This document shows, in pieces, positions 9,361 through 55,103 of a stretch of DNA of 64,000 nucleotides. Both the position numbers and the translations under genes were made by a program. Source of the DNA: Escherichia coli. Lineage in GTDB: Bacteria > Pseudomonadota > Gammaproteobacteria > Enterobacterales > Enterobacteriaceae. The stretch lies in assembly GCF_041248615.1 (NCBI RefSeq), contig NZ_CP158426.1; one strand, given 5' to 3'. Under the pieces are notes generated by a model. That model was given only the letters and a program-made list of their open reading frames with translations, had not been told where the DNA came from and ran no database searches. Each line of letters starts with the position of its first letter. Position 1 is the stretch's first letter.

Positions 9361-12059
9361 GACGCCGTGATTTTTTTCGTCACCTCAGCGATATCACGCT
9401 CCGCACGCTGCCTCACATCTTTCTCCAGCTGCGTCATTTCGCGGTTAATCTCATTCTCCAGTTGCTCAACTTCAGTGCGCCGTGCAGAGGCATCAATGCG
9501 TTCATTGATCTCCCGTCCCAGATGCGTTTTATTTATCGCCCCCCTGAAAAAATCCAGGTAACCTTCGGCATCATCGCTCGCCCGACCGACGGCCTCCACG
9601 AATGTCGATTTGCCGACTGTGTTCACACTGCGAACGTAAAAATAATAATCATGGCCCGGCTTAATATTCTGGCCGGAGACAAGCCACTGACTTCCGGTAC
9701 CAAGATAACGGGCTGTGGTTTCAACCTGCCTGATATCAGCAATCCGCTTTTCCGAAAACCAGAACTCAAACTGTACCGTCGGATCATAAACCGCAAGATG
9801 CGGCGTGGCGGTTATCTGAAAATAGCCCGGCGTCAGCTCAATCCGCGATGGCGCTGCCGGTGCGGCAATCCGGAACGATACCGACGCCGGATCGCCCTGC
9901 TGCCCCCACGCATTTACCGCCCGGACTGTCAGACTGTAATTTCCCAGAGCCAGCTGCCTGAAGCGGTATGTGGTTTCCGTCGTCCGGGCCGTGCTGACCA
10001 GCCGCTCACTGCCGTCATCCGCTGCCACGGTCAGGCGAAGCATAAAGCTCACGCCCTTCACCACCTTCGGCGTATCCCAGCGTGCCAGCACCTGGTATTC
10101 CCCGCTGTCTGCGGTGACTTCTGCGGTCAGGTGTTGCACTGCTGGCGGCGTGACACCATTCACCGTGCCGCTCTGGTCGCCGTCAAAGTACGCCCCGTTA
10201 TCCACGATGGCCTCTTTTTCCGGTACATGCTGCACGGCGGTGATGGCATACGTGCCGTCGTCGTTCTCACGGATACTCACGCAGCGGAACAGGCGCTGGC
10301 GCAGCGTCGGCAGCTTCAGCCCCCACACGCTGTACTCGGCAACGCCGTCAGGAACCCGGCTCACTTTCACCTTCACGCCGTCGGTGACGGACTGAACCTC
10401 CACGCTGACCGGATTGCCACTTCCGTCAACCAGGCTTATCAGCGTGGTACCGGAGGATGGCAGCGTGATTTCACGGTCTAGCGTCAGCGTCCGGGTCTGG
10501 CTGTTCACCGCCAGCACACGACCACCGGTGCTGATACCGGCATAGTCATCATCACAGATTTCAATGACATCGCCCGGTACATGGCGAAGCCCTTCAGCAC
10601 CCACGCTGAAATCCACGGTCTGCGTCTCCAGCAGTTCTGTTTTAATCAGCCACAGCCCGGCGCGGTGTGCCTGCCCCCGGCTGGTACAGCCAAAGGCATC
10701 CATCTTCGTGACGTTACGACCGTAACGGGCAATGGCCTGCGTGTCCTCCACAAGCTCTGTCGCCGTCTCCTGGCCGTTATCCGGGTCACTCCAGTTCACC
10801 TCAACGGCATTATGGCGGTCCTTCAGGGCGCTGAAGCTGTAGCGGAACGGCGCGCCATCATCCGGCATCACCACATTACTGCGGTTATAGGTCCACACCT
10901 TATCCGACGGTCGGTCCTGCACGAACGTCAGCGTCTGCCCGTTCCATACCGGCATACAGCGCATCGCCGAGCAGAAATCACTGAGCACATCCCACGCCTT
11001 GCGCTGTGTGGTCAGCCAGGCATTACAGGTGATGCGCGGCTCCGTGCCACCAGAGCCGTCCGGCACTGACTGGTCGCAGTACTGGCCGATGACATACAGC
11101 GCCCATTTGTCCACATCCGCCGCACCAAGACGTTTCCCCATGCCGTAGCGCGGGTGGGTCAGCATATCCCACAGACACCAGGCCGGGTTATCGCTGTATG
11201 CCGGTTTAAACGTTCCGTCCCAGATACCGCTGTATTGCCGCGTCTGCGGGTTATAGTTCGACGGCACCTGCAGAATGCGCCCGCGAAGATGATAATTACG
11301 GCTCACCTGCTGGCTGCCGAACTGCTCCGAATCCACCTGCACACCGACCAGTGCCGTGTTCGGGTAGCACTGTTTCACATCGATGATTTCGGTGTATGAC
11401 GACCAGAGCGTTTTGTTCTGCAGCTGGTCTGTGGTGCTGTCCGGCGTCATCCTGCGCATCCGGATACTGAACGGGCGCGGCGGCAGGTTACCCACCACCA
11501 CCGGGGCCAGATACTGCGAGGTGGTTTTTCCCTTAATGGTGATGTCTTTTTCCGTTAACCAGCGACCGTTACGCTGTATCTGAACCAGCAGGCGGACTTC
11601 CGACGGATTCCGGTCCCCCTTTGAGGTGGTTTCCACCAGTGCCTGCACACCGAAGGTCAGGCGCAGACGGTCGATGTTTGCCGACGTGATGGTCCGGGTG
11701 ATCGGCGTGTCGTATTTCACTTCCGTACCCAGCACCGTCTCGGAGCCGGAGGATTCAAACCCCTCCGGCGGTGTCTGCTCCTGCTCACCGGCCCGGAAAA
11801 CCACCGTGACACCGGAGATATTGGTATTCCCCTCACTGTCCAGCACCGGCGTACCGTTCAGCAGCACGCTTTTTAATCCATCCACCGGTCCTTGTATCGG
11901 CCCTTCGCTGATGACATCGATCACACTCAGCAACTGCGTGGATTTCAGATTGTCCTTCGCTTCGCGCGGGGTATGCCCCTTACTGCTGCCTTTACCCATT
12001 CGTCATGCTCCATAAACGACAAAACCGCCCGGAGGCGGTTTCACATAAAATGTTTTGCA

Positions 12060-31261: not shown

Positions 31262-31606
31262 TTACCATTTCGGCGGAGTCTTCAGAGAACCAGTAATTCT
31301 TCCCGGTAGCTTTCCTTTGTAGGTTATCCACACATTCTGCGCCTCTAAAATTATGGGGCGCTTTTCCGGCGACTGCTCATCCCCTTCACATAACCCGGCA
31401 GCACCATCCAGGAAGAACTGTCTAATGCTCCTTCTCGCTGCTGCCTCATAAAACTCCAACGCGGCACCTTCAACACGGTCCAGCGAGATGTCCAGGTCAA
31501 AAATTTCACCGTCAAAGCGTTTTTTGTCCCGTAAGGCTACAGTTACCGCCACTTTATTCTCAAAATTGCGGACTCCTTTCACAACCAGTTCATAGTCTTG
31601 TGTCAT
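31262..31606 (-). CDS. hypothetical protein between holin and endolysin
   Basis: ORF in the S-R interval; no recognised motif; start uncertain. Confidence 0.4.
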   Translation of the reverse strand: MTQDYELVVKGVRNFENKVAVTVALRDKKRFDGEIFDLDISLDRVEGAALEFYEAAARRSIRQFFLDGAAGLCEGDEQSPEKRPIILEAQNVWITYKGKLPGRITGSLKTPPKW

Positions 31607-31610
31607 TGGA

Positions 31611-31826
31611 TTACTCTCTTCTCGCAACCTTACGCCTGTCTTCTTTAATCTTGAAATAAAGGTTTGTCAGATACGTCAGCAGGCCAAAAACCAGACTACC
31701 CAGCACACCGATTGCAGCCCACTGTGACGGAGTTACTTTATCGAGTAACTGCAATGCCCAGAAACCAGCATTACCAGCCGATGTGCCATAGGCGATACCT
31801 GTTGTTAACTTATCCATTGATTTCAT
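31611..31826 (-). CDS. S: pinholin (phage 21 S-like class II holin, dual-start MKSM)
   Basis: 71 aa, [28 protein letters not shown]... close to S21 including the Met1/Met4 dual start. Confidence 0.85.
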
Positions 31827-32044
31827 ATCCTCACCCCGATGTACACAGATGGTGCAATATGTTTGAAAAGATCGGAGTCTATGGGTTAGTTTTTATAGCA
31901 AACGTTGTTCTCAACGGCGCTAAAAAACAGACACATTAAAAATGTGGGTAATTATTTTAAAAGAAAATCATATATTAAATAATAATACGAGATATGTTTT
32001 CATATTTAGTGTACTGTATACGGCCATTTATACAGGAAAAGCCT

Positions 32045-32215
32045 ATGTCAGAACGTAAAGACTCAAAATCACGCCGTAATTATCTCGTTAAATGTTCCTG
32101 CCCAAACTGCACCCAAGAGTCAGAACACAGTTTTTCAAGAGTACAAAAAGGTGCCCTTTTGATCTGCCCTCATTGCAACAAAGTATTCCAGACAAATCTT
32201 AAAGCTGTAGCTTGA
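32045..32215 (+). CDS. small zinc-ribbon protein (CxxC ... CxxC)
   Basis: AGGA SD before ATG; CPNC and CPHC pairs. Confidence 0.35.
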   Translation: MSERKDSKSRRNYLVKCSCPNCTQESEHSFSRVQKGALLICPHCNKVFQTNLKAVA

Positions 32216-32277
32216 TTGATTTTATTCGTAACAAGTATTTTTTATATTTTAATAACATATTTAAAGCAGATAATAAA

Positions 32278-32300
32278 AAACCCGCCTGAGCGGGTTTAAT
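32278..32300. terminator. hairpin flanked by A and T runs (possible bidirectional terminator)
   Basis: AAAAAACCCGCCTGAGCGGGTTTAAT. Confidence 0.4.
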
Positions 32301-32578
32301 ATTGTGGTGCTTTTTGTGGGAGTCATCCACTTACGCACTTTGTTTTGCTATGCTAGCAGTTAGCTTCTGCTGTAAAACTATTCATGCAGCAAACCTGCAC
32401 TTCACCACAATGGTTAGCATACTTTTCCTGATTAAGTTATTGCCAAATATGCTGGCCATTGTTTCATGTATTGGATCTCCTTACTATTTATTAAAGAGAT
32501 CCAATATTCACCACTCTGTCTGTATCTCCACTCAGGCATCAGCCTTCTTCGTTATCGTATACAGACAAACTATTAATT

Positions 32579-32794
32579 TTAATCAGTAATTATGACATTT
32601 GCTGCTGCAGGACCTTTAGCACCACTCTCTACAGAGAAGGTAACCTTTTGACCTTCAAATAAGGTTCGATAATTATCATTCTGAATCGCAGAAAAATGCA
32701 CAAACACATCTTTACTACCATCAACAGGAGAAATAAAGCCAAAACCTTTATCAGCGTTAAACCATTTTACTAAACCAGTCATTTTATTTGACAT
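32579..32794 (-). CDS. cold shock protein (CspB-like)
   Basis: [21 protein letters not shown]... canonical CspA-family sequence. Confidence 0.8.
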
Positions 32795-33093
32795 TCTACA
32801 TTCCTTAACTTGAGCCTTTCGGCATAAATGGCTTGTATAACAGAAACGACTTCGTACTTAATTGGAGAGACTCAAAGAAGGAATAAGTGAATAACACCTG
32901 AAATGAGAACTGCTTTAGTAAACTACTTCGTATATCGTCTGTTCTTCAAACCGACGCAATCATTAACGCATAGTTGAACATATGAAGCAATGTTTATTTT
33001 AGACATCCAGCCATCTTCAACCCCATCAAAAAACTATAGCTTTCTTCAGGAACGTGTGTATAGTGCGCCAAGTTATCAGTATTAAGGAATTTT

Positions 33094-33306
33094 TTGTCCC
33101 GTAAAATGACAGGAATTCTCAAAACCTTTGACGGCAAAAGCGGCAAAGGTCTTATAACCCCATCCGATGGTCGTATCGATGTCCAGCTTCATGTTTCAGC
33201 GCTCAATCTCCGCGATGCAGAAGAAATTACCACCGGATTACGCGTGGAATTTTGCCGGATAAATGGTCTGCGTGGACCATCAGCTGCCAATGTTTACCTT
33301 TCATGA
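33094..33306 (+). CDS. cold shock protein paralog (CspF/CspH-like)
   Basis: [26 protein letters not shown]... CspF/H-like. Confidence 0.75.
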
Positions 33307-33598
33307 GCTATATTAAAGCTTTAACTTCAAGCCCCATCGAATCAAACATGGAGAGTTTTCATGAATAAACCCGTCTGTCTTGATGACTGGTTGATTGGCT
33401 TTAAAAGCTTATGCTGTACTTTGACCTTAATAGCTCTGCTAATAATGTAATAAGCAGACTCATTGTATCTATGGACATTGTACTGGAAGAAAACATTTTA
33501 AACATCAGGCAAAAAACAAAGTCACCCGATAAATAATAAGTAAACTAACATGAATCCCGTAATGAGATTCAACATCTCTATTACCCTATTTAAAGCAC

Positions 33599-33622
33599 AA
33601 AAACCCGCTCATCAGCGGGTTT
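33599..33622 (-). terminator. tR-prime-like terminator downstream of Q
   Basis: CCCGCT-CATC-AGCGGG hairpin with flanking T run (on the minus strand). Confidence 0.5.
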
Positions 33623-33668
33623 TCTACTTTTTCTTAACTTCGGGTATACAAAGCCCATCGTTGAAAAA

Positions 33669-33697
33669 ATTTTATCCATATTTTTTGAAAAATGCAA
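33669..33697 (-). promoter_or_regulatory. putative Q-dependent late promoter (pR-prime-like)
   Basis: Minus-strand TTGCAT, 17-bp spacer, TAAAAT, immediately downstream of Q and upstream of the hairpin. Confidence 0.45.
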
Positions 33698-33728
33698 GCA
33701 TCACGTCGCCATCTTCGGCGAAAATCAC

Positions 33729-34481
33729 TTATCTCGTCACCTTTCTCAATTGTGCTTCAGCGTAAGATTCCTCCTGCCAGCACTTTGTAACCAGTTTATC
33801 AATGACATTTGCATATCCTTTATACCACTGATAATCACTCAGGTCCGGTACCAGCTTCTGGACATGATGCCGCGCCAGTGTGGTTGGTAAACGACTAAAC
33901 CGTTTTCCATTGCAACGCCCACAAATCTTATAAACAGGTGTGCCATGAAGCCGGGTCCTTTTTTCATCCAGGACAATACCTTTACCCTTACACCCTCTGC
34001 ACGCTGTGCTGACTTCTCCCTTACCATGGCAATGCTGACATAGTTCCTTCACCCACTCTTCTTTGATAACAGATTCCCCGCTTCTGGAGTGTTTCACCAC
34101 TTCGCGCAATACATTATGAAATCCAGTACCAGCACAATGCTCGCAACGAGCCTTACTTGCCGCAGACCTGGAATAATCAGCAAAGGCAAAATTCACAAGG
34201 TAAGGAATAATCTGTAGCCGGGTTTCTTCACTCAATTTATTCAATGTCGGGTTATCCAGTGCCATCGCGTAATTGAGCAGACCTTCAATCGCAAACTGAG
34301 GATCCTGAACACCAACTTTTGCCAGGAATAAGGCAAACCCAAGCGGTGCTTTCGACTGCACCATCCCCTGCGCAGCCATCACATCCGTAATCGTTAAACC
34401 ACCAGAGCCTGTCGCCGGTGCGTCATCACTCAATTTTGGAGATTTTGGGGAGTAATATTTTGGTAAGGCTTCAAGGTTCAT
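33729..34481 (-). CDS. late-gene antitermination protein Q
   Basis: 250 aa with Cys-rich zinc-binding region (CEHCAGTG ... CQHCHGKG ... CRGCKGKG), Q-family; position upstream of lysis genes. Confidence 0.7.
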   Translation of the reverse strand: MNLEALPKYYSPKSPKLSDDAPATGSGGLTITDVMAAQGMVQSKAPLGFALFLAKVGVQDPQFAIEGLLNYAMALDNPTLNKLSEETRLQIIPYLVNFAFADYSRSAASKARCEHCAGTGFHNVLREVVKHSRSGESVIKEEWVKELCQHCHGKGEVSTACRGCKGKGIVLDEKRTRLHGTPVYKICGRCNGKRFSRLPTTLARHHVQKLVPDLSDYQWYKGYANVIDKLVTKCWQEESYAEAQLRKVTR

Positions 34482-34494
34482 GCTCGTTCTCCAC

Positions 34495-35490
34495 TTACGC
34501 CAGTACGCCTATTGCCAGCGCACGATCGATAAAACGAAATATCAGCTCCAGCTGGGAGCCATACTTCTCTTCAAATGCCACGGTATCCGCATGCAGCTCG
34601 TCGTGATGCTTTCTGCACAAAGGCAACACAAAAAGGTCATGCGCTTTTGTACCCATTCCCCCCTGACCGTGGCCTATCAGGTGGTGGGGATCATCAGCAG
34701 GTTTTCCACAACATGCGCACGGCTGCGTCTTAACCCAGCGCGTGTACTTTTCATTAACCCAGCGGTGACGTTTTGGGCGTAACATAAAAGACTCCGGCGA
34801 CTCCGGATCCACTTTCAGCGCCAGCACCTTTTTCGCCTTATCCTGGATGATGCTGGTGGCAGGAACCGAAGGCACAAGGTCACTTTCCCGGGTAACAGAC
34901 GGCACAACAGGCTTCGGTAATCTCAGTGCCTTACGGGCTGCACTTTCCGGTAAGGCATCCGCCAGATCATTACGAATCAGCCACCAGCACAGTTCCGGCA
35001 TTGTCACAACATGACTGTCATCAAAACCGAGATCCCGACGCACAACAGACAACACCCAGCGGGCACAGTTATCCGTTGCCATTGATTCCAGCCGTTCCGT
35101 GAACTGATCGCGCAGCTGGTTATCGCAGTGCCAGCACAGACGGATTGCGCCCGGAGCGTGTCGCATTGTTGTCATATTCTCGCTGTGCCAGTCGGAATGA
35201 GGCCACTGGCAGCCTTTTTCACGAAGTAACCAGCTTTCAAGACATTCCACCCCACCAGCACGACGGATCACTGCCTCATTGCGGAACACGGCCCGAACGG
35301 CAGGATCATCCGCCAGCGGTTGTGATGCCGCCGGAACGGCACCACTGGCGAAAGATGAATAACGTTCCGGCTCAGGCTCCAGCAGGACACGCCCCTGCAT
35401 AAACAAGGGCATCAGCTCTGAACCTGGTCTGAACAATACGATCCCCATACGCGGGGCAATTTCAGGGGTCAGTAGTGCTCTCACGGTCAC
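34495..35490 (-). CDS. DUF968-family protein with C-terminal HNH-like zinc motif
   Basis: C-terminal CACCGKPADDPHHLIGHGQGGMGTKAHD...CRKHHDELH; common lambdoid early-region gene. Confidence 0.55.
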   Translation of the reverse strand: MTVRALLTPEIAPRMGIVLFRPGSELMPLFMQGRVLLEPEPERYSSFASGAVPAASQPLADDPAVRAVFRNEAVIRRAGGVECLESWLLREKGCQWPHSDWHSENMTTMRHAPGAIRLCWHCDNQLRDQFTERLESMATDNCARWVLSVVRRDLGFDDSHVVTMPELCWWLIRNDLADALPESAARKALRLPKPVVPSVTRESDLVPSVPATSIIQDKAKKVLALKVDPESPESFMLRPKRHRWVNEKYTRWVKTQPCACCGKPADDPHHLIGHGQGGMGTKAHDLFVLPLCRKHHDELHADTVAFEEKYGSQLELIFRFIDRALAIGVLA

Positions 35491-47878: not shown

Positions 47879-50011
47879 TCAATCTTTAAGACTAATTGTG
47901 ATTGCATCTGGAAATCCAATTTGGCTATAGCACATAGTTTCGGTTATGAATAATTTTCTATCGATAAAATCAAGTACATCTTTTTTCGTGAGCCCCGTTA
48001 ACATCGTCAATTTGTTAATTACATAATCATACCAATCATGGTGAAGCATGTTTATATACATGTTAATATCAACTGCATCTTTCTTCCATGAATTATTCGG
48101 TATCAAATCTTCAGATAAAAATCCTCTTATTAAATCGCTTGCATAGGACATCCTAAGAAAAACAGAAAGAAAAAGCCTTACATTAACATGTGTAAAATTT
48201 GTAGATAGCGTCGAAGGAAACTCGTAAAACCGGTAGATCAACCGACTTACAAAAACAGCAGAGTCTATCGCATTTACAGGCAGTAATGTTCCGATGACAC
48301 TTAATGCACCACTTATAACGAAGCCATTAGCAACAGAGGCATGAGAACCACTTAGGGCAGATGTTAAACATGCACTCAGAATTACGATAGGAGGAATTCT
48401 TGCTATTTTTCTCAAACTCCAAGTGTCCACTTTATCCTCACCTATTATTAACCATCCATGACTCCCATTGCCATCATGGTTTCCATGACAATCCATAACA
48501 AGAATATGACCTTGATATTGATTTAGAGCATCAATAAACTCAGCTTTCGATCTAACATCAATAATCTCGCAATCAAGATCTGGCATCTGTTTTTTAAATA
48601 TCTCAATTGCGTTCTCTAATATGAACTTTAAGTGATCATCAGGCTCAAAAGAACGTATAACTAAAACCTTTCTCAACTCAGATGCTTTTACTAAAACGCG
48701 CGGAAAAGCAGAGGCGCTCTGTAGAAGAACGTTACCAGGCGTAGCATTTATTCTTGATATCTCATGACTGAACATTATAGGTATGTTATTAAACCTAATC
48801 CAATCCAATGGTACATCACAAACAAAGGACAAATCGCTATAGTTTTTACTTATATATGTTCTCAACTTGCAACCAAGGGCTCTTCGAATAACAGTATTGA
48901 ATGCTTTAGATTTAGTGATGAATGCTTCACTATTTATCCCAGAAGAAGTTGCAAGATCTTCAAGATTTTTCAAATAATTGGAGTAATGATTTATTGCATT
49001 TGGCAATCTTATTGCTGGGATTTTTTTATTTATGCTAAATAAAGTAATCGCAGCTGTTGTTAATCGCATTTCAGCGCGTCTTAGTGAGGTGAGGTAACGG
49101 AAAGCAGGACTTTTAAAAAGTTCTTTTCTATCTGAATTTATATCAAGTCTAATTCCAGAATAGCCTGGATTCCTCAACACTCCATCAATAAGGAATTTTT
49201 TCTCAATTGTGGATAAATTTTCCGTTATTAACTCATAAAAGTCATTATTTTTATCATATAAAAAAGAGTGCATACCCGGAGCAAAAAGTAAGACTTCCGT
49301 TGGAAGTGGTATATCTAATTCCTTTAAACATTCGGTGTATGCATCAACGCTATGAAGTATTATTTCTATAAACTCTCTTTTGCTACTACCATCTTTAATT
49401 CTTTTTGGTGGAGATAGCATATAGCCAAGTGATTCAATTAACAACTCATTGGGTAGTGTTGAATTGTTAAGCGTCGATCTCCAAGGTGATTTATTAAATA
49501 AAGCCCCTCTTCGCTTCAACTTCGTTGATATTTTCTTTTCACTGTGATTTTTTCTTATTTTATCCTCAATGAATTTCAACCGAGAGAAGAGCACCTTATC
49601 AAATGAGTATATACTATTAATCTTATTAAGTGGTAGATCAGCGCGTTTAGAATTGCAACAAATTATAGGTGGTATAGCAAAATGTTTTTTTAAAGCACAA
49701 ACATACGAAAAATCTTCTTTAGCACAAAAAATTAAGCAAAATGGCGTTTGATAAATATTTGGTATTTTTTCAAGATTTTCTTTAGATATTAAAAAAATAG
49801 GATTTAGCCCGCTTAGAGTAGGCTGAAAGTTATCATTTTCACTGACAAAAATCTCACTAATTTCTTTTGGTGTTTTGGCCAATAAAAAAAGAATGTTGGA
49901 TATCTCTGGGTTGAGGAGGCCAGTATCGAAACCTTGGATTATGGTTTGTTCCCCAGTAGTAGGCATGATTACAACTTTAAGTATCGCCCCGTGTTCCTGT
50001 AACAGTTCCAT
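47879..50011 (-). CDS. CHAT-domain (caspase-like cysteine protease) protein with an uncharacterised N-terminal region
   Basis: C-terminal GHILVMDCHGNHDG ... PPIVILSACLTSALSGSHASVANGFVISGALSVIG has the His-Gly / Ser-Ala-Cys catalytic signature of CHAT peptidases; AGGA SD before MELLQ; strongly AT-rich. Confidence 0.6.
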   Translation of the reverse strand: MELLQEHGAILKVVIMPTTGEQTIIQGFDTGLLNPEISNILFLLAKTPKEISEIFVSENDNFQPTLSGLNPIFLISKENLEKIPNIYQTPFCLIFCAKEDFSYVCALKKHFAIPPIICCNSKRADLPLNKINSIYSFDKVLFSRLKFIEDKIRKNHSEKKISTKLKRRGALFNKSPWRSTLNNSTLPNELLIESLGYMLSPPKRIKDGSSKREFIEIILHSVDAYTECLKELDIPLPTEVLLFAPGMHSFLYDKNNDFYELITENLSTIEKKFLIDGVLRNPGYSGIRLDINSDRKELFKSPAFRYLTSLRRAEMRLTTAAITLFSINKKIPAIRLPNAINHYSNYLKNLEDLATSSGINSEAFITKSKAFNTVIRRALGCKLRTYISKNYSDLSFVCDVPLDWIRFNNIPIMFSHEISRINATPGNVLLQSASAFPRVLVKASELRKVLVIRSFEPDDHLKFILENAIEIFKKQMPDLDCEIIDVRSKAEFIDALNQYQGHILVMDCHGNHDGNGSHGWLIIGEDKVDTWSLRKIARIPPIVILSACLTSALSGSHASVANGFVISGALSVIGTLLPVNAIDSAVFVSRLIYRFYEFPSTLSTNFTHVNVRLFLSVFLRMSYASDLIRGFLSEDLIPNNSWKKDAVDINMYINMLHHDWYDYVINKLTMLTGLTKKDVLDFIDRKLFITETMCYSQIGFPDAITISLKD

Positions 50012-50144: not shown

Positions 50145-51362
50145 CTAGTCTGAACAAGTACAAGTAACTATCGATTCAACTCTCTCCCACCATGCCTGGT
50201 AAGCTTTACGCTGTTCATCTAAATAATCGCTCTTGTCATAAACCTGCCATACCCCTGGCAGTTTATGACCGAGCATTATTTCTGCAATATGAGGTGCAGT
50301 AAGATCAGAAAAGTTTGTTCGTGCTGTTCGTCTCAAATCATGAAGAGACCAATGAGGGAATTGATACCCCAAACGCCGCCATGCGTACTGCATTAAATTG
50401 TAAGGCAGCGACTGCAATGATGTCCGGCCAACGGGTTCCCTGCTTCCTTCCTTAGTAAAAAGCATATCGGAACCATTGTTCATAGAGATAACGTACTTTA
50501 TAAGCTCTTCAACCGGTTCAATAATGGGGCGCTTTAGCGGTTCGCCTGTTATATCCCCTGTCTTATGTCGTTCTGGCGGTACAGTCCATACCTTATTAAT
50601 GAAATCAAAATCATTCACCCTAGCGGTAATTAGCTCTGAACTACGGCAGCCAAAATGCAGCAATAGTTTAATGAAGGCCCGGTATTTAGGAACCATTCGA
50701 GAACCATCGATCGCAGCATAAAGGATTTTAATTTCATCATGTGTCAGAAACCGTTTCTTCTGACCTTTACGGATATCCATATCTTTACCCGTGATATCCG
50801 ACAGCGGGCGAGTTTCAATGAGCTTTCTCTTATACGCCCAGACATGGGCCTGCTTTGCGTTAATTAGCAATCGGTCTGCTATTGCTGGAGTCTTAGTGCT
50901 AAGAGGCTCCAGGACTTCTAACCAATCATGCAATGTAGCTGCATCGTGAGGGATATTCCCGATTTTAGAGAACAGGTGCAGCTCAAACGAGCGGAGTATC
51001 TGTTCAGAACCTTTTTTATTTTTTACACAATATGCTTCATACCAGGCACGGATCACAGACTCTACCGTCATGGCTTCAGTAGCTTTTCGTTTTTCAGCCT
51101 GCTTGACTAATCGTGGATTGCGGTTTGACTCGAGTTCACCACGGAGACGGATAACTTCTTCTCTGGCCTCTTTTAATCCAGTTGCCGGGTAAGTTCCGAT
51201 ATCAAGGCGCTCACCTTTCCCTGCCCATTGATAACGATATTGGAACACTACGCGACCTTTCGGTGATACTCTGACAGACAGACCATCACGATCGGATTTA
51301 ACCAAAACCTTATCACGTTCCTTTCCAACGACTGAACGCAACCACGCATCAGACAGCGCCAT
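50145..51362 (-). CDS. tyrosine recombinase / phage integrase (P4-type)
   Basis: 405 aa; N-terminal DGLSVRVSPKGRVVFQYRY; C-terminal HDLRRTART ... LGH ... Y catalytic pattern. Confidence 0.85.
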   Translation of the reverse strand: MALSDAWLRSVVGKERDKVLVKSDRDGLSVRVSPKGRVVFQYRYQWAGKGERLDIGTYPATGLKEAREEVIRLRGELESNRNPRLVKQAEKRKATEAMTVESVIRAWYEAYCVKNKKGSEQILRSFELHLFSKIGNIPHDAATLHDWLEVLEPLSTKTPAIADRLLINAKQAHVWAYKRKLIETRPLSDITGKDMDIRKGQKKRFLTHDEIKILYAAIDGSRMVPKYRAFIKLLLHFGCRSSELITARVNDFDFINKVWTVPPERHKTGDITGEPLKRPIIEPVEELIKYVISMNNGSDMLFTKEGSREPVGRTSLQSLPYNLMQYAWRRLGYQFPHWSLHDLRRTARTNFSDLTAPHIAEIMLGHKLPGVWQVYDKSDYLDEQRKAYQAWWERVESIVTCTCSD

Positions 51363-54404: not shown

Positions 54405-54662
<258 letters not shown>

Positions 54663-54780: not shown

Positions 54781-54867
54781 GCGAAGGTGGCGGAATTGGT
54801 AGACGCGCTAGCTTCAGGTGTTAGTGTCCTTACGGACGTGGGGGTTCAAGTCCCCCCCCTCGCACCA
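54781..54867 (+). tRNA. leuQ: tRNA-Leu (CAG)
   Basis: 87-nt sequence GCGAAGGTGGCGGAATTGGTAGACGCGCTAGCTTCAGGTG...CTCGCACCA with anticodon loop CTTCAGGT and long variable arm. Confidence 0.9.
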
Positions 54868-54895
54868 AAAACCACGTTGATATTGCTCGCACTGG

Positions 54896-54982
54896 GCGAA
54901 GGTGGCGGAATTGGTAGACGCGCTAGCTTCAGGTGTTAGTGTCCTTACGGACGTGGGGGTTCAAGTCCCCCCCCTCGCACCA
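54896..54982 (+). tRNA. leuP: tRNA-Leu (CAG)
   Basis: Identical second copy. Confidence 0.9.
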
Positions 54983-55016
54983 AACGAGGCGATATCAAAA
55001 AAAGTAAGATGACTGT

Positions 55017-55103
55017 GCGAAGGTGGCGGAATTGGTAGACGCGCTAGCTTCAGGTGTTAGTGTCCTTACGGACGTGGGGGTTCAAGTCCCCCCCCTCGCA
55101 CCA
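55017..55103 (+). tRNA. leuV: tRNA-Leu (CAG)
   Basis: Identical third copy. Confidence 0.9.

Follow-up and report, generated by a model that had tools for sequence, protein, structure and literature searches.

The locus described here lies within a 64-kb stretch of Escherichia coli DNA, which we refer to as the window and whose sequence matches the chromosome of E. coli NRZ14408 (NZ_LT599825.1) at 100% identity. It contains two divergently oriented genes for cold-shock proteins, cspB (32579..32794, minus strand) and cspF (33094..33306, plus strand), which are the only cold-shock-domain loci in the window. The two genes are embedded in the late control region of a lambdoid prophage; the full order is Q, PR′, tR′, ynfS, cspF, cspB, ynfU and holin, and the RefSeq names along the region are ydfT (Q), a hypothetical gene (ynfS), cspF, cspB, ynfU and essQ. 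An earlier note on this DNA had reported two cold-shock protein paralogs at 32579-33306, and both open reading frames are indeed intact at these limits, cspB encoding 71 amino acids from an ATG start and cspF 70 amino acids from a TTG start. Both products match the Pfam cold-shock domain (PF00313, cut-off 27 bits) over its full length and far above the cut-off, at 108.9 bits (E = 1.1e-31) for CspB and 74.1 bits (E = 8.4e-21) for CspF. These E-values, together with the 100% match between the window and an annotated chromosome of E. coli, exclude a chance match. As paralogs, CspB and CspF are distant, with 41% identity between them.

Alignment to the K-12 proteins, the check that the earlier note had named, left little ambiguity about which members of the family are present. 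CspB is identical to K-12 CspB at 70/71 positions (the difference being I55V) and to CspG at 54/71, while CspF is identical to K-12 CspF at 69/70 positions (V9L) and to CspH at 53/70, so that poor alignment to the Csp family is not what we found. The second gene had been labelled CspF/H-like, and here the two halves of the label part: the protein scores 158.4 bits against the NCBIfam CspF model (NF012007, cut-off 111), whereas its score of 127.1 bits against the CspH equivalog (NF012008) falls under the cut-off of 141. Judged by these alignments and family scores, the second csp gene is cspF and not cspH. The same comparisons bear on the idea that the pair is the chromosomal cspG-cspH locus, or that its second gene is cspH. 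In the K-12 cspG-cspH locus, too, a canonical csp gene and an F/H-type gene diverge from an intergenic region of about 300 bp, with conserved promoter blocks, −10 hexamer (TATAGT) and TTG start, and the locus can be aligned to the window over 635 bp, intergenic region included. Nucleotide identity over this alignment is only 76.5%, however, and the neighbours of the K-12 locus are IS1D and ymcF-ymcE-gnsA, whereas Q and the holin, both lacking there, flank the window pair. Together with the closer match of both proteins to CspB and CspF and the CspH score below cut-off, this leaves the cspG-cspH reading with practically no credibility.

CspB has the features of a canonical CspA-family RNA chaperone. 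It exceeds the cut-off of the NCBIfam CspA subfamily model (143.3 bits, cut-off 130), its nucleic-acid-binding motifs are intact (RNP1 KGFGFI and RNP2 VFVHF), and it is 82% identical over 67 residues to a CspA sequence that agrees with the PDB CspA chain. In the literature, cspB has been reported as up-regulated and needed in long-term stationary phase (PMC7406224), while another study found that CspB accumulated poorly when overproduced and that two Csp target mRNAs were little affected by CspB, CspF or CspH (PMC11648934).

CspF is a more divergent protein. Its cold-shock domain carries degenerate RNP motifs, with SGKGLI in place of RNP1 and VQLHV in place of RNP2, and threonine replaces W11. 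In an alignment of 34 CspF/H homologs, all of which come from Enterobacteriaceae, W11 is missing throughout the clade, F18 is always replaced by lysine, F31 by glutamine or leucine, and F34 by isoleucine or valine; K18 is therefore invariant, and C54 is nearly so. The window CspF additionally has leucine at F20. An AlphaFold model of CspF (pLDDT 86.8) has five strands and superimposes on CspA (1MJC) with a TM score of 0.90 and an rmsd of 1.6 Å, and on the strength of this model CspF retains the cold-shock fold. Judging from the replaced residues, CspF is probably not a classical RNA chaperone. The clade has been described as of unknown function and poor in aromatic residues (PMC6719143). Pairwise dN/dS values are 0.18 for cspF and cspH and 0.17 for cspH and its homolog in phage PHB10, and cspF is under purifying selection.

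Cold-shock domains also occur in effectors of anti-phage defence systems, and we considered whether the two proteins are effectors of this kind, similar to those of retron Se72 or the type V CSD effector. There are weak PADLOC CSD_V matches at 55.3 and 20.6 bits, and the NCBIfam retron Se72 effector model gives 55.5 and 19.8 bits. The Se72 scores lie far under the 82-bit cut-off, however, and reflect the domain that the proteins have in common with the effector; the annotation of the whole 64-kb window, the interval included, contains no reverse transcriptase, and the best matches are to the housekeeping CspA and CspF families. We therefore regard a defence role of this type as highly improbable.

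The region upstream of cspB contains the elements expected of a cspA-type gene. A predicted promoter on the minus strand (32962..32990) consists of a −35 hexamer TTGCTT (32990..32985), a 17-bp spacer that includes TGc, and a −10 hexamer GTTAAT; the extended −10 element TGcGTTAAT (32970..32962) can be read directly from the sequence, and an AT-rich, UP-like block precedes the promoter. This promoter block is kept in the cspG-cspH and PHB10 pairs and lies directly upstream of the point at which the Rfam cspA model starts. The 5′ leader that would follow is 161 nt long (32795..32955, minus strand) and is a predicted thermoregulator of the cspA type with a cold-box hairpin. On the cspB strand, the E. 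coli cspA thermoregulator model RF01766 matches 32516..32955 at 159.6 bits (gathering threshold 78, E = 1e-42), with the leader and coding region together covering the full 428-position model, and the leader by itself still aligns to model positions 1-151 (E = 1.8e-5). As in the model, the cold-box hairpin and the GCCGAAAGGC hairpin are both present, although the alignment differs from it in containing many non-canonical pairs. About 280 nt past cspB, a terminator scan predicted an intrinsic terminator, AAACCCGCTCAGGCGGGTTTTTTATTAT (32270..32297, minus strand), with an 8-bp stem, 5 GC pairs and a T tract. A review (PMC12360218, citing Delaleau et al. 2024) describes the K-12 cspB leader as a Rho switch that responds to temperature and, in the cold, also makes the ribosome-binding site accessible.

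The signals predicted for cspF (33059..33089, plus strand) are more compact, comprising a −10 TATAGT (33059..33064) and a Shine-Dalgarno sequence AAGGAA (33084..33089) placed 4 nt before the TTG start. The −10, the Shine-Dalgarno sequence and the TTG start are kept in three diverged pairs, namely those of the window and Qin, of K-12 cspG-cspH, and of phage PHB10. A cspA-type leader is lacking from cspF, an Rfam search having given no hit on its strand. All promoters and terminators in the interval are motif-level predictions. A generic promoter scan gave 7 sites where 7.8 were expected in shuffled sequence and was thus uninformative, so the promoter calls rest on conservation across loci and on homology to lambda and cspA.

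Upstream of the csp interval in the sense of late transcription, the antiterminator gene Q (33729..34481, minus strand; ydfT/quuQ type) encodes a lambda-Q family protein with 179 bits against Pfam Antiterm (PF03589) and E = 1.1e-37 against the lambda Q chain 7ubm_Q in the PDB. A reading of this PF03589 protein as a Q21-family antiterminator was rejected, as the PDB matches are relatives of lambda Q (7ubm, 4mo1). Downstream of Q is a candidate for the late promoter PR′ (33669..33697, minus strand), with a −35 TTGCAT (33697..33692), a 17-bp spacer and a −10 TAAAAT (33674..33669). The −35 hexamer agrees with the consensus at only 3/6 positions, and the −10 hexamer and the downstream element align column for column with the stretch downstream of lambda Q, which we take to be PR′, the lambda record carrying no such annotation. 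The downstream element is a start-site-proximal, −10-like sequence, AACGATGGG (33654..33662, minus strand), that is invariant in the window, lambda, K-12 Qin, the Stx2k phage and SfV. It is identical to the sigma70-dependent pause element of lambda PR′, and by extension from lambda it would presumably act as a pause site here.

The candidate promoter is followed by a G+C-rich hairpin (33592..33623) that has a T run on either strand, which a terminator scan reported and which we designate tR′ as a prediction; SfV carries an annotated terminator at the homologous place. From the T runs on either side, the hairpin is probably a bidirectional terminator, ending the late leader RNA in the minus-strand direction and cspF-ynfS transcription in the plus-strand direction. 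An Rfam Phe_leader match over 33594..33687 (25.2 bits against a threshold of 55, E = 0.76) was rejected because it merely captures the tR′ hairpin. The arrangement as a whole parallels the Q-PR′-6S RNA-tR′-S region of lambda, where Q belongs to the same family and the −10 hexamer and AACGATGGG stand in register with the window. The terminated leader of lambda is about 194 nt long, whereas only about 40-70 nt separate tR′ from the predicted start in the window; the lambda slot, moreover, carries only orf-64.

The remaining genes of the interval are small. Downstream of cspF is ynfS (33361..33450, plus strand), which encodes a 29-aa hydrophobic protein 86% identical to K-12 YnfS. On the other side of cspB is ynfU (32045..32215, plus strand), which encodes a 56-aa zinc-ribbon protein (CxxC...CxxC) with 106.9 bits against Pfam YnfU (PF23499) and 79.8 bits against the NCBIfam YnfU family (cut-off 36) and is 98% identical to K-12 YnfU. 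Beyond it lies essQ (31611..31826, minus strand), a class II holin gene S of the phage 21 type (Pfam Phage_holin_2_1, 116 bits). In the direction of late transcription, the csp interval therefore follows Q, PR′ and tR′ and precedes holin S, which places it in the cargo slot of the lambdoid late operon.

The earlier note had held that the csp genes occupy the position in which Stx phages carry their toxin genes, and comparison with phiSTEC1575-Stx2k bears this out with defined boundaries. This phage has the same KilA-N, DUF968, Q, PR′ and tR′ module at 92.6% identity and also a class II holin; its similarity to the window stops at base 33596, just past the terminator, and resumes inside the holin at 31730. 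Between these points the two differ, the phage carrying hypothetical genes, three tRNAs, stx2kA/B and an IraM-like gene before the holin, in a slot of about 4.2 kb compared with about 1.77 kb for ynfS-cspF-cspB-ynfU in the window. Stx2c phages have the Q region in common with the window at 96.1%. SfV has the same left junction, its homology also ending at 33596, and carries orf47/orf48 as cargo instead. The left edge of the slot, at tR′, is thus set by both the Stx2k phage and SfV, and the right edge, in the holin, by the Stx2k phage alone. The note had also stated that no toxin gene is present; a tblastn search of the whole 64-kb window with Stx2k A and B found none, the best E-value being 0.69. 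Together these comparisons indicate that the slot between tR′ and the holin is exchangeable, such that stx2 or a cold-shock cassette can stand behind one and the same Q-PR′-tR′ module with the junction at the terminator. A search of the literature turned up no study devoted to csp genes in the lambdoid Q-S slot.

The nearest relative of the interval is the K-12 cryptic prophage Qin, as had been proposed, in which the genes essQ-ynfU-cspB-cspF-ynfS-ydfT(quuQ) have the same order and orientation; window positions 31407..34812 are colinear with Qin at 93.7% over 3408 bp. The host prophage is nevertheless not Qin itself. Qin lies at the ydfJ-rspB locus, whereas the csp genes of the window belong to a roughly 49-kb lambdoid prophage that reads on the minus strand beside yjjG and contains tail, head and terminase genes, an Rz-R-ydfR-S lysis cassette, the csp interval, Q, DUF968, KilA-N and RusA genes, an immunity region and an integrase gene. 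Qin and phage 2H10 also carry a third csp gene of the cspI/cspG type downstream of Rz, which the window prophage lacks; the corresponding place (28400..29933) is taken up by a short "TonB family" gene and small genes annotated as hypothetical.

Several further features of this prophage and its surroundings were noted. Three IS elements lie within it (7459..8667, 43045..43742 and 46485..47693). A copy of IS1414 interrupts a J-like tail gene, leaving a DUF3672 pseudogene (6771..7424) and a gene annotated as phage tail protein (8577..11999), and a second IS1414 copy is found in the early-left region along with IS1B. With three insertions and a split tail gene, the prophage is probably defective, and its induction and late transcription may have ceased. 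A gene for a BRCT-domain protein (40598..41488) directly adjoins the cI-like XRE repressor gene (39929..40615) in the immunity region, and a gene for a 710-aa CHAT-domain protein (47879..50011) adjoins the integrase gene (50145..51362), an integrase-adjacent place being a typical spot for prophage cargo or defence genes. Within the lysis cassette, a hypothetical 90-aa ORF (31024..31296, plus strand) lies antisense between the lysozyme and ydfR genes and had no match in a Pfam search. At the start of the window (1..2863), a truncated gene for a YadA-like adhesin accompanies genes of a different, Mu-like element (gp16 family and Mor activator). When the first 12 kb of the window were compared with the int-yjjG junction, no attL/attR direct repeats of 14 bp or longer were found, and the left end of the prophage may lie outside the window. 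In the host flank, naRNA4 (REP-type) Rfam matches at 54448..54641 and 54781..55103 stand beside three tandem tRNA-Leu(CAG) genes (leuVPQ).

We then surveyed the distribution of the cassette. Among 5426 complete E. coli genomes, the Q-PR′-tR′ module was present in 2414, the full csp cargo in 1617 (approximately 30%), and Q, csp cargo and S together in 1602. The near-equality of the last two counts indicates that almost all full copies of the cargo occupy the Q-S slot, while about a third of the genomes with the Q module are without the full Q-cargo-S arrangement. Five sequenced phages cover the Q-cargo-S query (2H10, PhiR63_1, HannyBb and PhiR42_1 at 100%, Tritos at 92%). The triad of ynfU (plus), csp (minus) and a cspF-like gene (plus) is also found in phage PHB10 (L008, 2589..3713), where it lies beside the integrase and near umuDC, and on the chromosome of Kosakonia (L017, 4006..5213), near a gene for an IMS-family (umuC-type) polymerase and an HNH gene. 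These occurrences outside the Q-S slot suggest that the cassette behaves as a unit. An obligatory pairing of csp with cspF was considered and rejected, as the cspF-like genes of Kluyvera and Salmonella loci lack a csp neighbour within 5 kb.

The survey also bears on the possibility that the genes no longer have a function and are decaying remnants of a cryptic prophage. The condition of the prophage, with its three insertions and split tail gene, is in keeping with decay, and deletion of cspF caused no competitive defect in long-term stationary phase (PMC7406224). The genes themselves give a different picture, however: both reading frames are intact with dN/dS values of 0.08-0.18, conservation of the regulatory motifs and of the cspF TTG start extends to pairs that are only 63-75% identical at the protein level, and the cassette is present in approximately 30% of complete E. 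coli genomes as well as in sequenced phage genomes. We consider it very unlikely that the genes are mere relics.

The explanation that we favour, and in which we have high confidence, is that the interval is a Qin-type cargo cassette in the lambdoid late-operon slot, in which cspB is autonomous and also subject to Q read-through and cspF is a divergent, non-canonical gene. It draws on the identities, synteny, RNA-family match, motifs, slot boundaries, fold and selection described above. Under this model, cspB would be transcribed as an autonomous gene from its own cspA-like promoter, with its own leader and terminator; the 161-nt leader would serve as an mRNA thermosensor and Rho switch, and CspB synthesis would occur chiefly upon a downshift in temperature and in long-term stationary phase, the cold induction and the Rho switch being taken from the literature. 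Q-modified RNA polymerase starting at PR′ would, in addition, cross cspB on its way to the lysis genes, a step adopted from published lambda and Stx phage biology. As cspB is co-oriented with the late operon, its RNA should rise on prophage induction, as stx RNA does in Stx phages. From its own short-leader promoter, cspF and then ynfS would be transcribed divergently; cspF, ynfS and ynfU would all be antisense to late transcription. The CspF protein keeps the cold-shock β-barrel but has lost W11, F18, F20, F31 and F34 of the nucleic-acid-binding face.

One may postulate instead that the csp genes are pure late-operon passengers like stx, expressed essentially only upon Q antitermination, with their own promoters being irrelevant. 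The co-orientation of cspB with Q and S downstream of PR′ and tR′ is what this would predict, and stx fills the same slot behind the same Q allele. Since cspF, ynfS and ynfU are on the opposite strand, however, PR′ cannot express them, and cspB has a complete predicted promoter and leader of the cspA type. K-12 cspB is, moreover, induced in the cold and in stationary phase although Qin is defective, according to PMC7406224 and PMC12360218, and the ynfU-csp-cspF triad exists outside the Q-S context in PHB10 and Kosakonia. We therefore find it quite unlikely that the genes are passengers alone.

As for the significance of these results, the gene arrangement itself is annotated in K-12 Qin and present in approximately 30% of complete E. 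coli genomes; it is thus already known and has little weight as a discovery. Our analysis refines the earlier reading in the identity of CspF, the lambda type of Q, the exact boundaries of the slot, the small genes ynfU and ynfS, and the recognition of a prophage other than Qin. The one question touched here is the function of the CspF/CspH clade, which is conserved and confined to Enterobacteriaceae. A speculative answer, which we think unlikely to be correct as it stands, is that the cassette is a co-selected, self-contained mobile unit and not a chance pair of paralogs, in which CspF, with its aromatic face replaced, does not serve as an RNA chaperone but works with or against the neighbouring Csp or ties the cassette to DNA damage and prophage induction. 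This would be in line with the occurrence of the triad in three unrelated contexts (the Q-S slot, PHB10 and Kosakonia) and with the published response to AZT, in which cspH was up 20-fold and cspF was among the induced genes with no LexA box (PMC11228462).

A separate observation concerns the proximity of the csp genes to the lysis cassette. In PDB entries 8h1i and 8xyf, the staphylococcal phage endolysin PlyGRCS was crystallised with E. coli CspC; these structures may offer a lead on contacts between Csp proteins and endolysins, or they may reflect heterologous co-purification.
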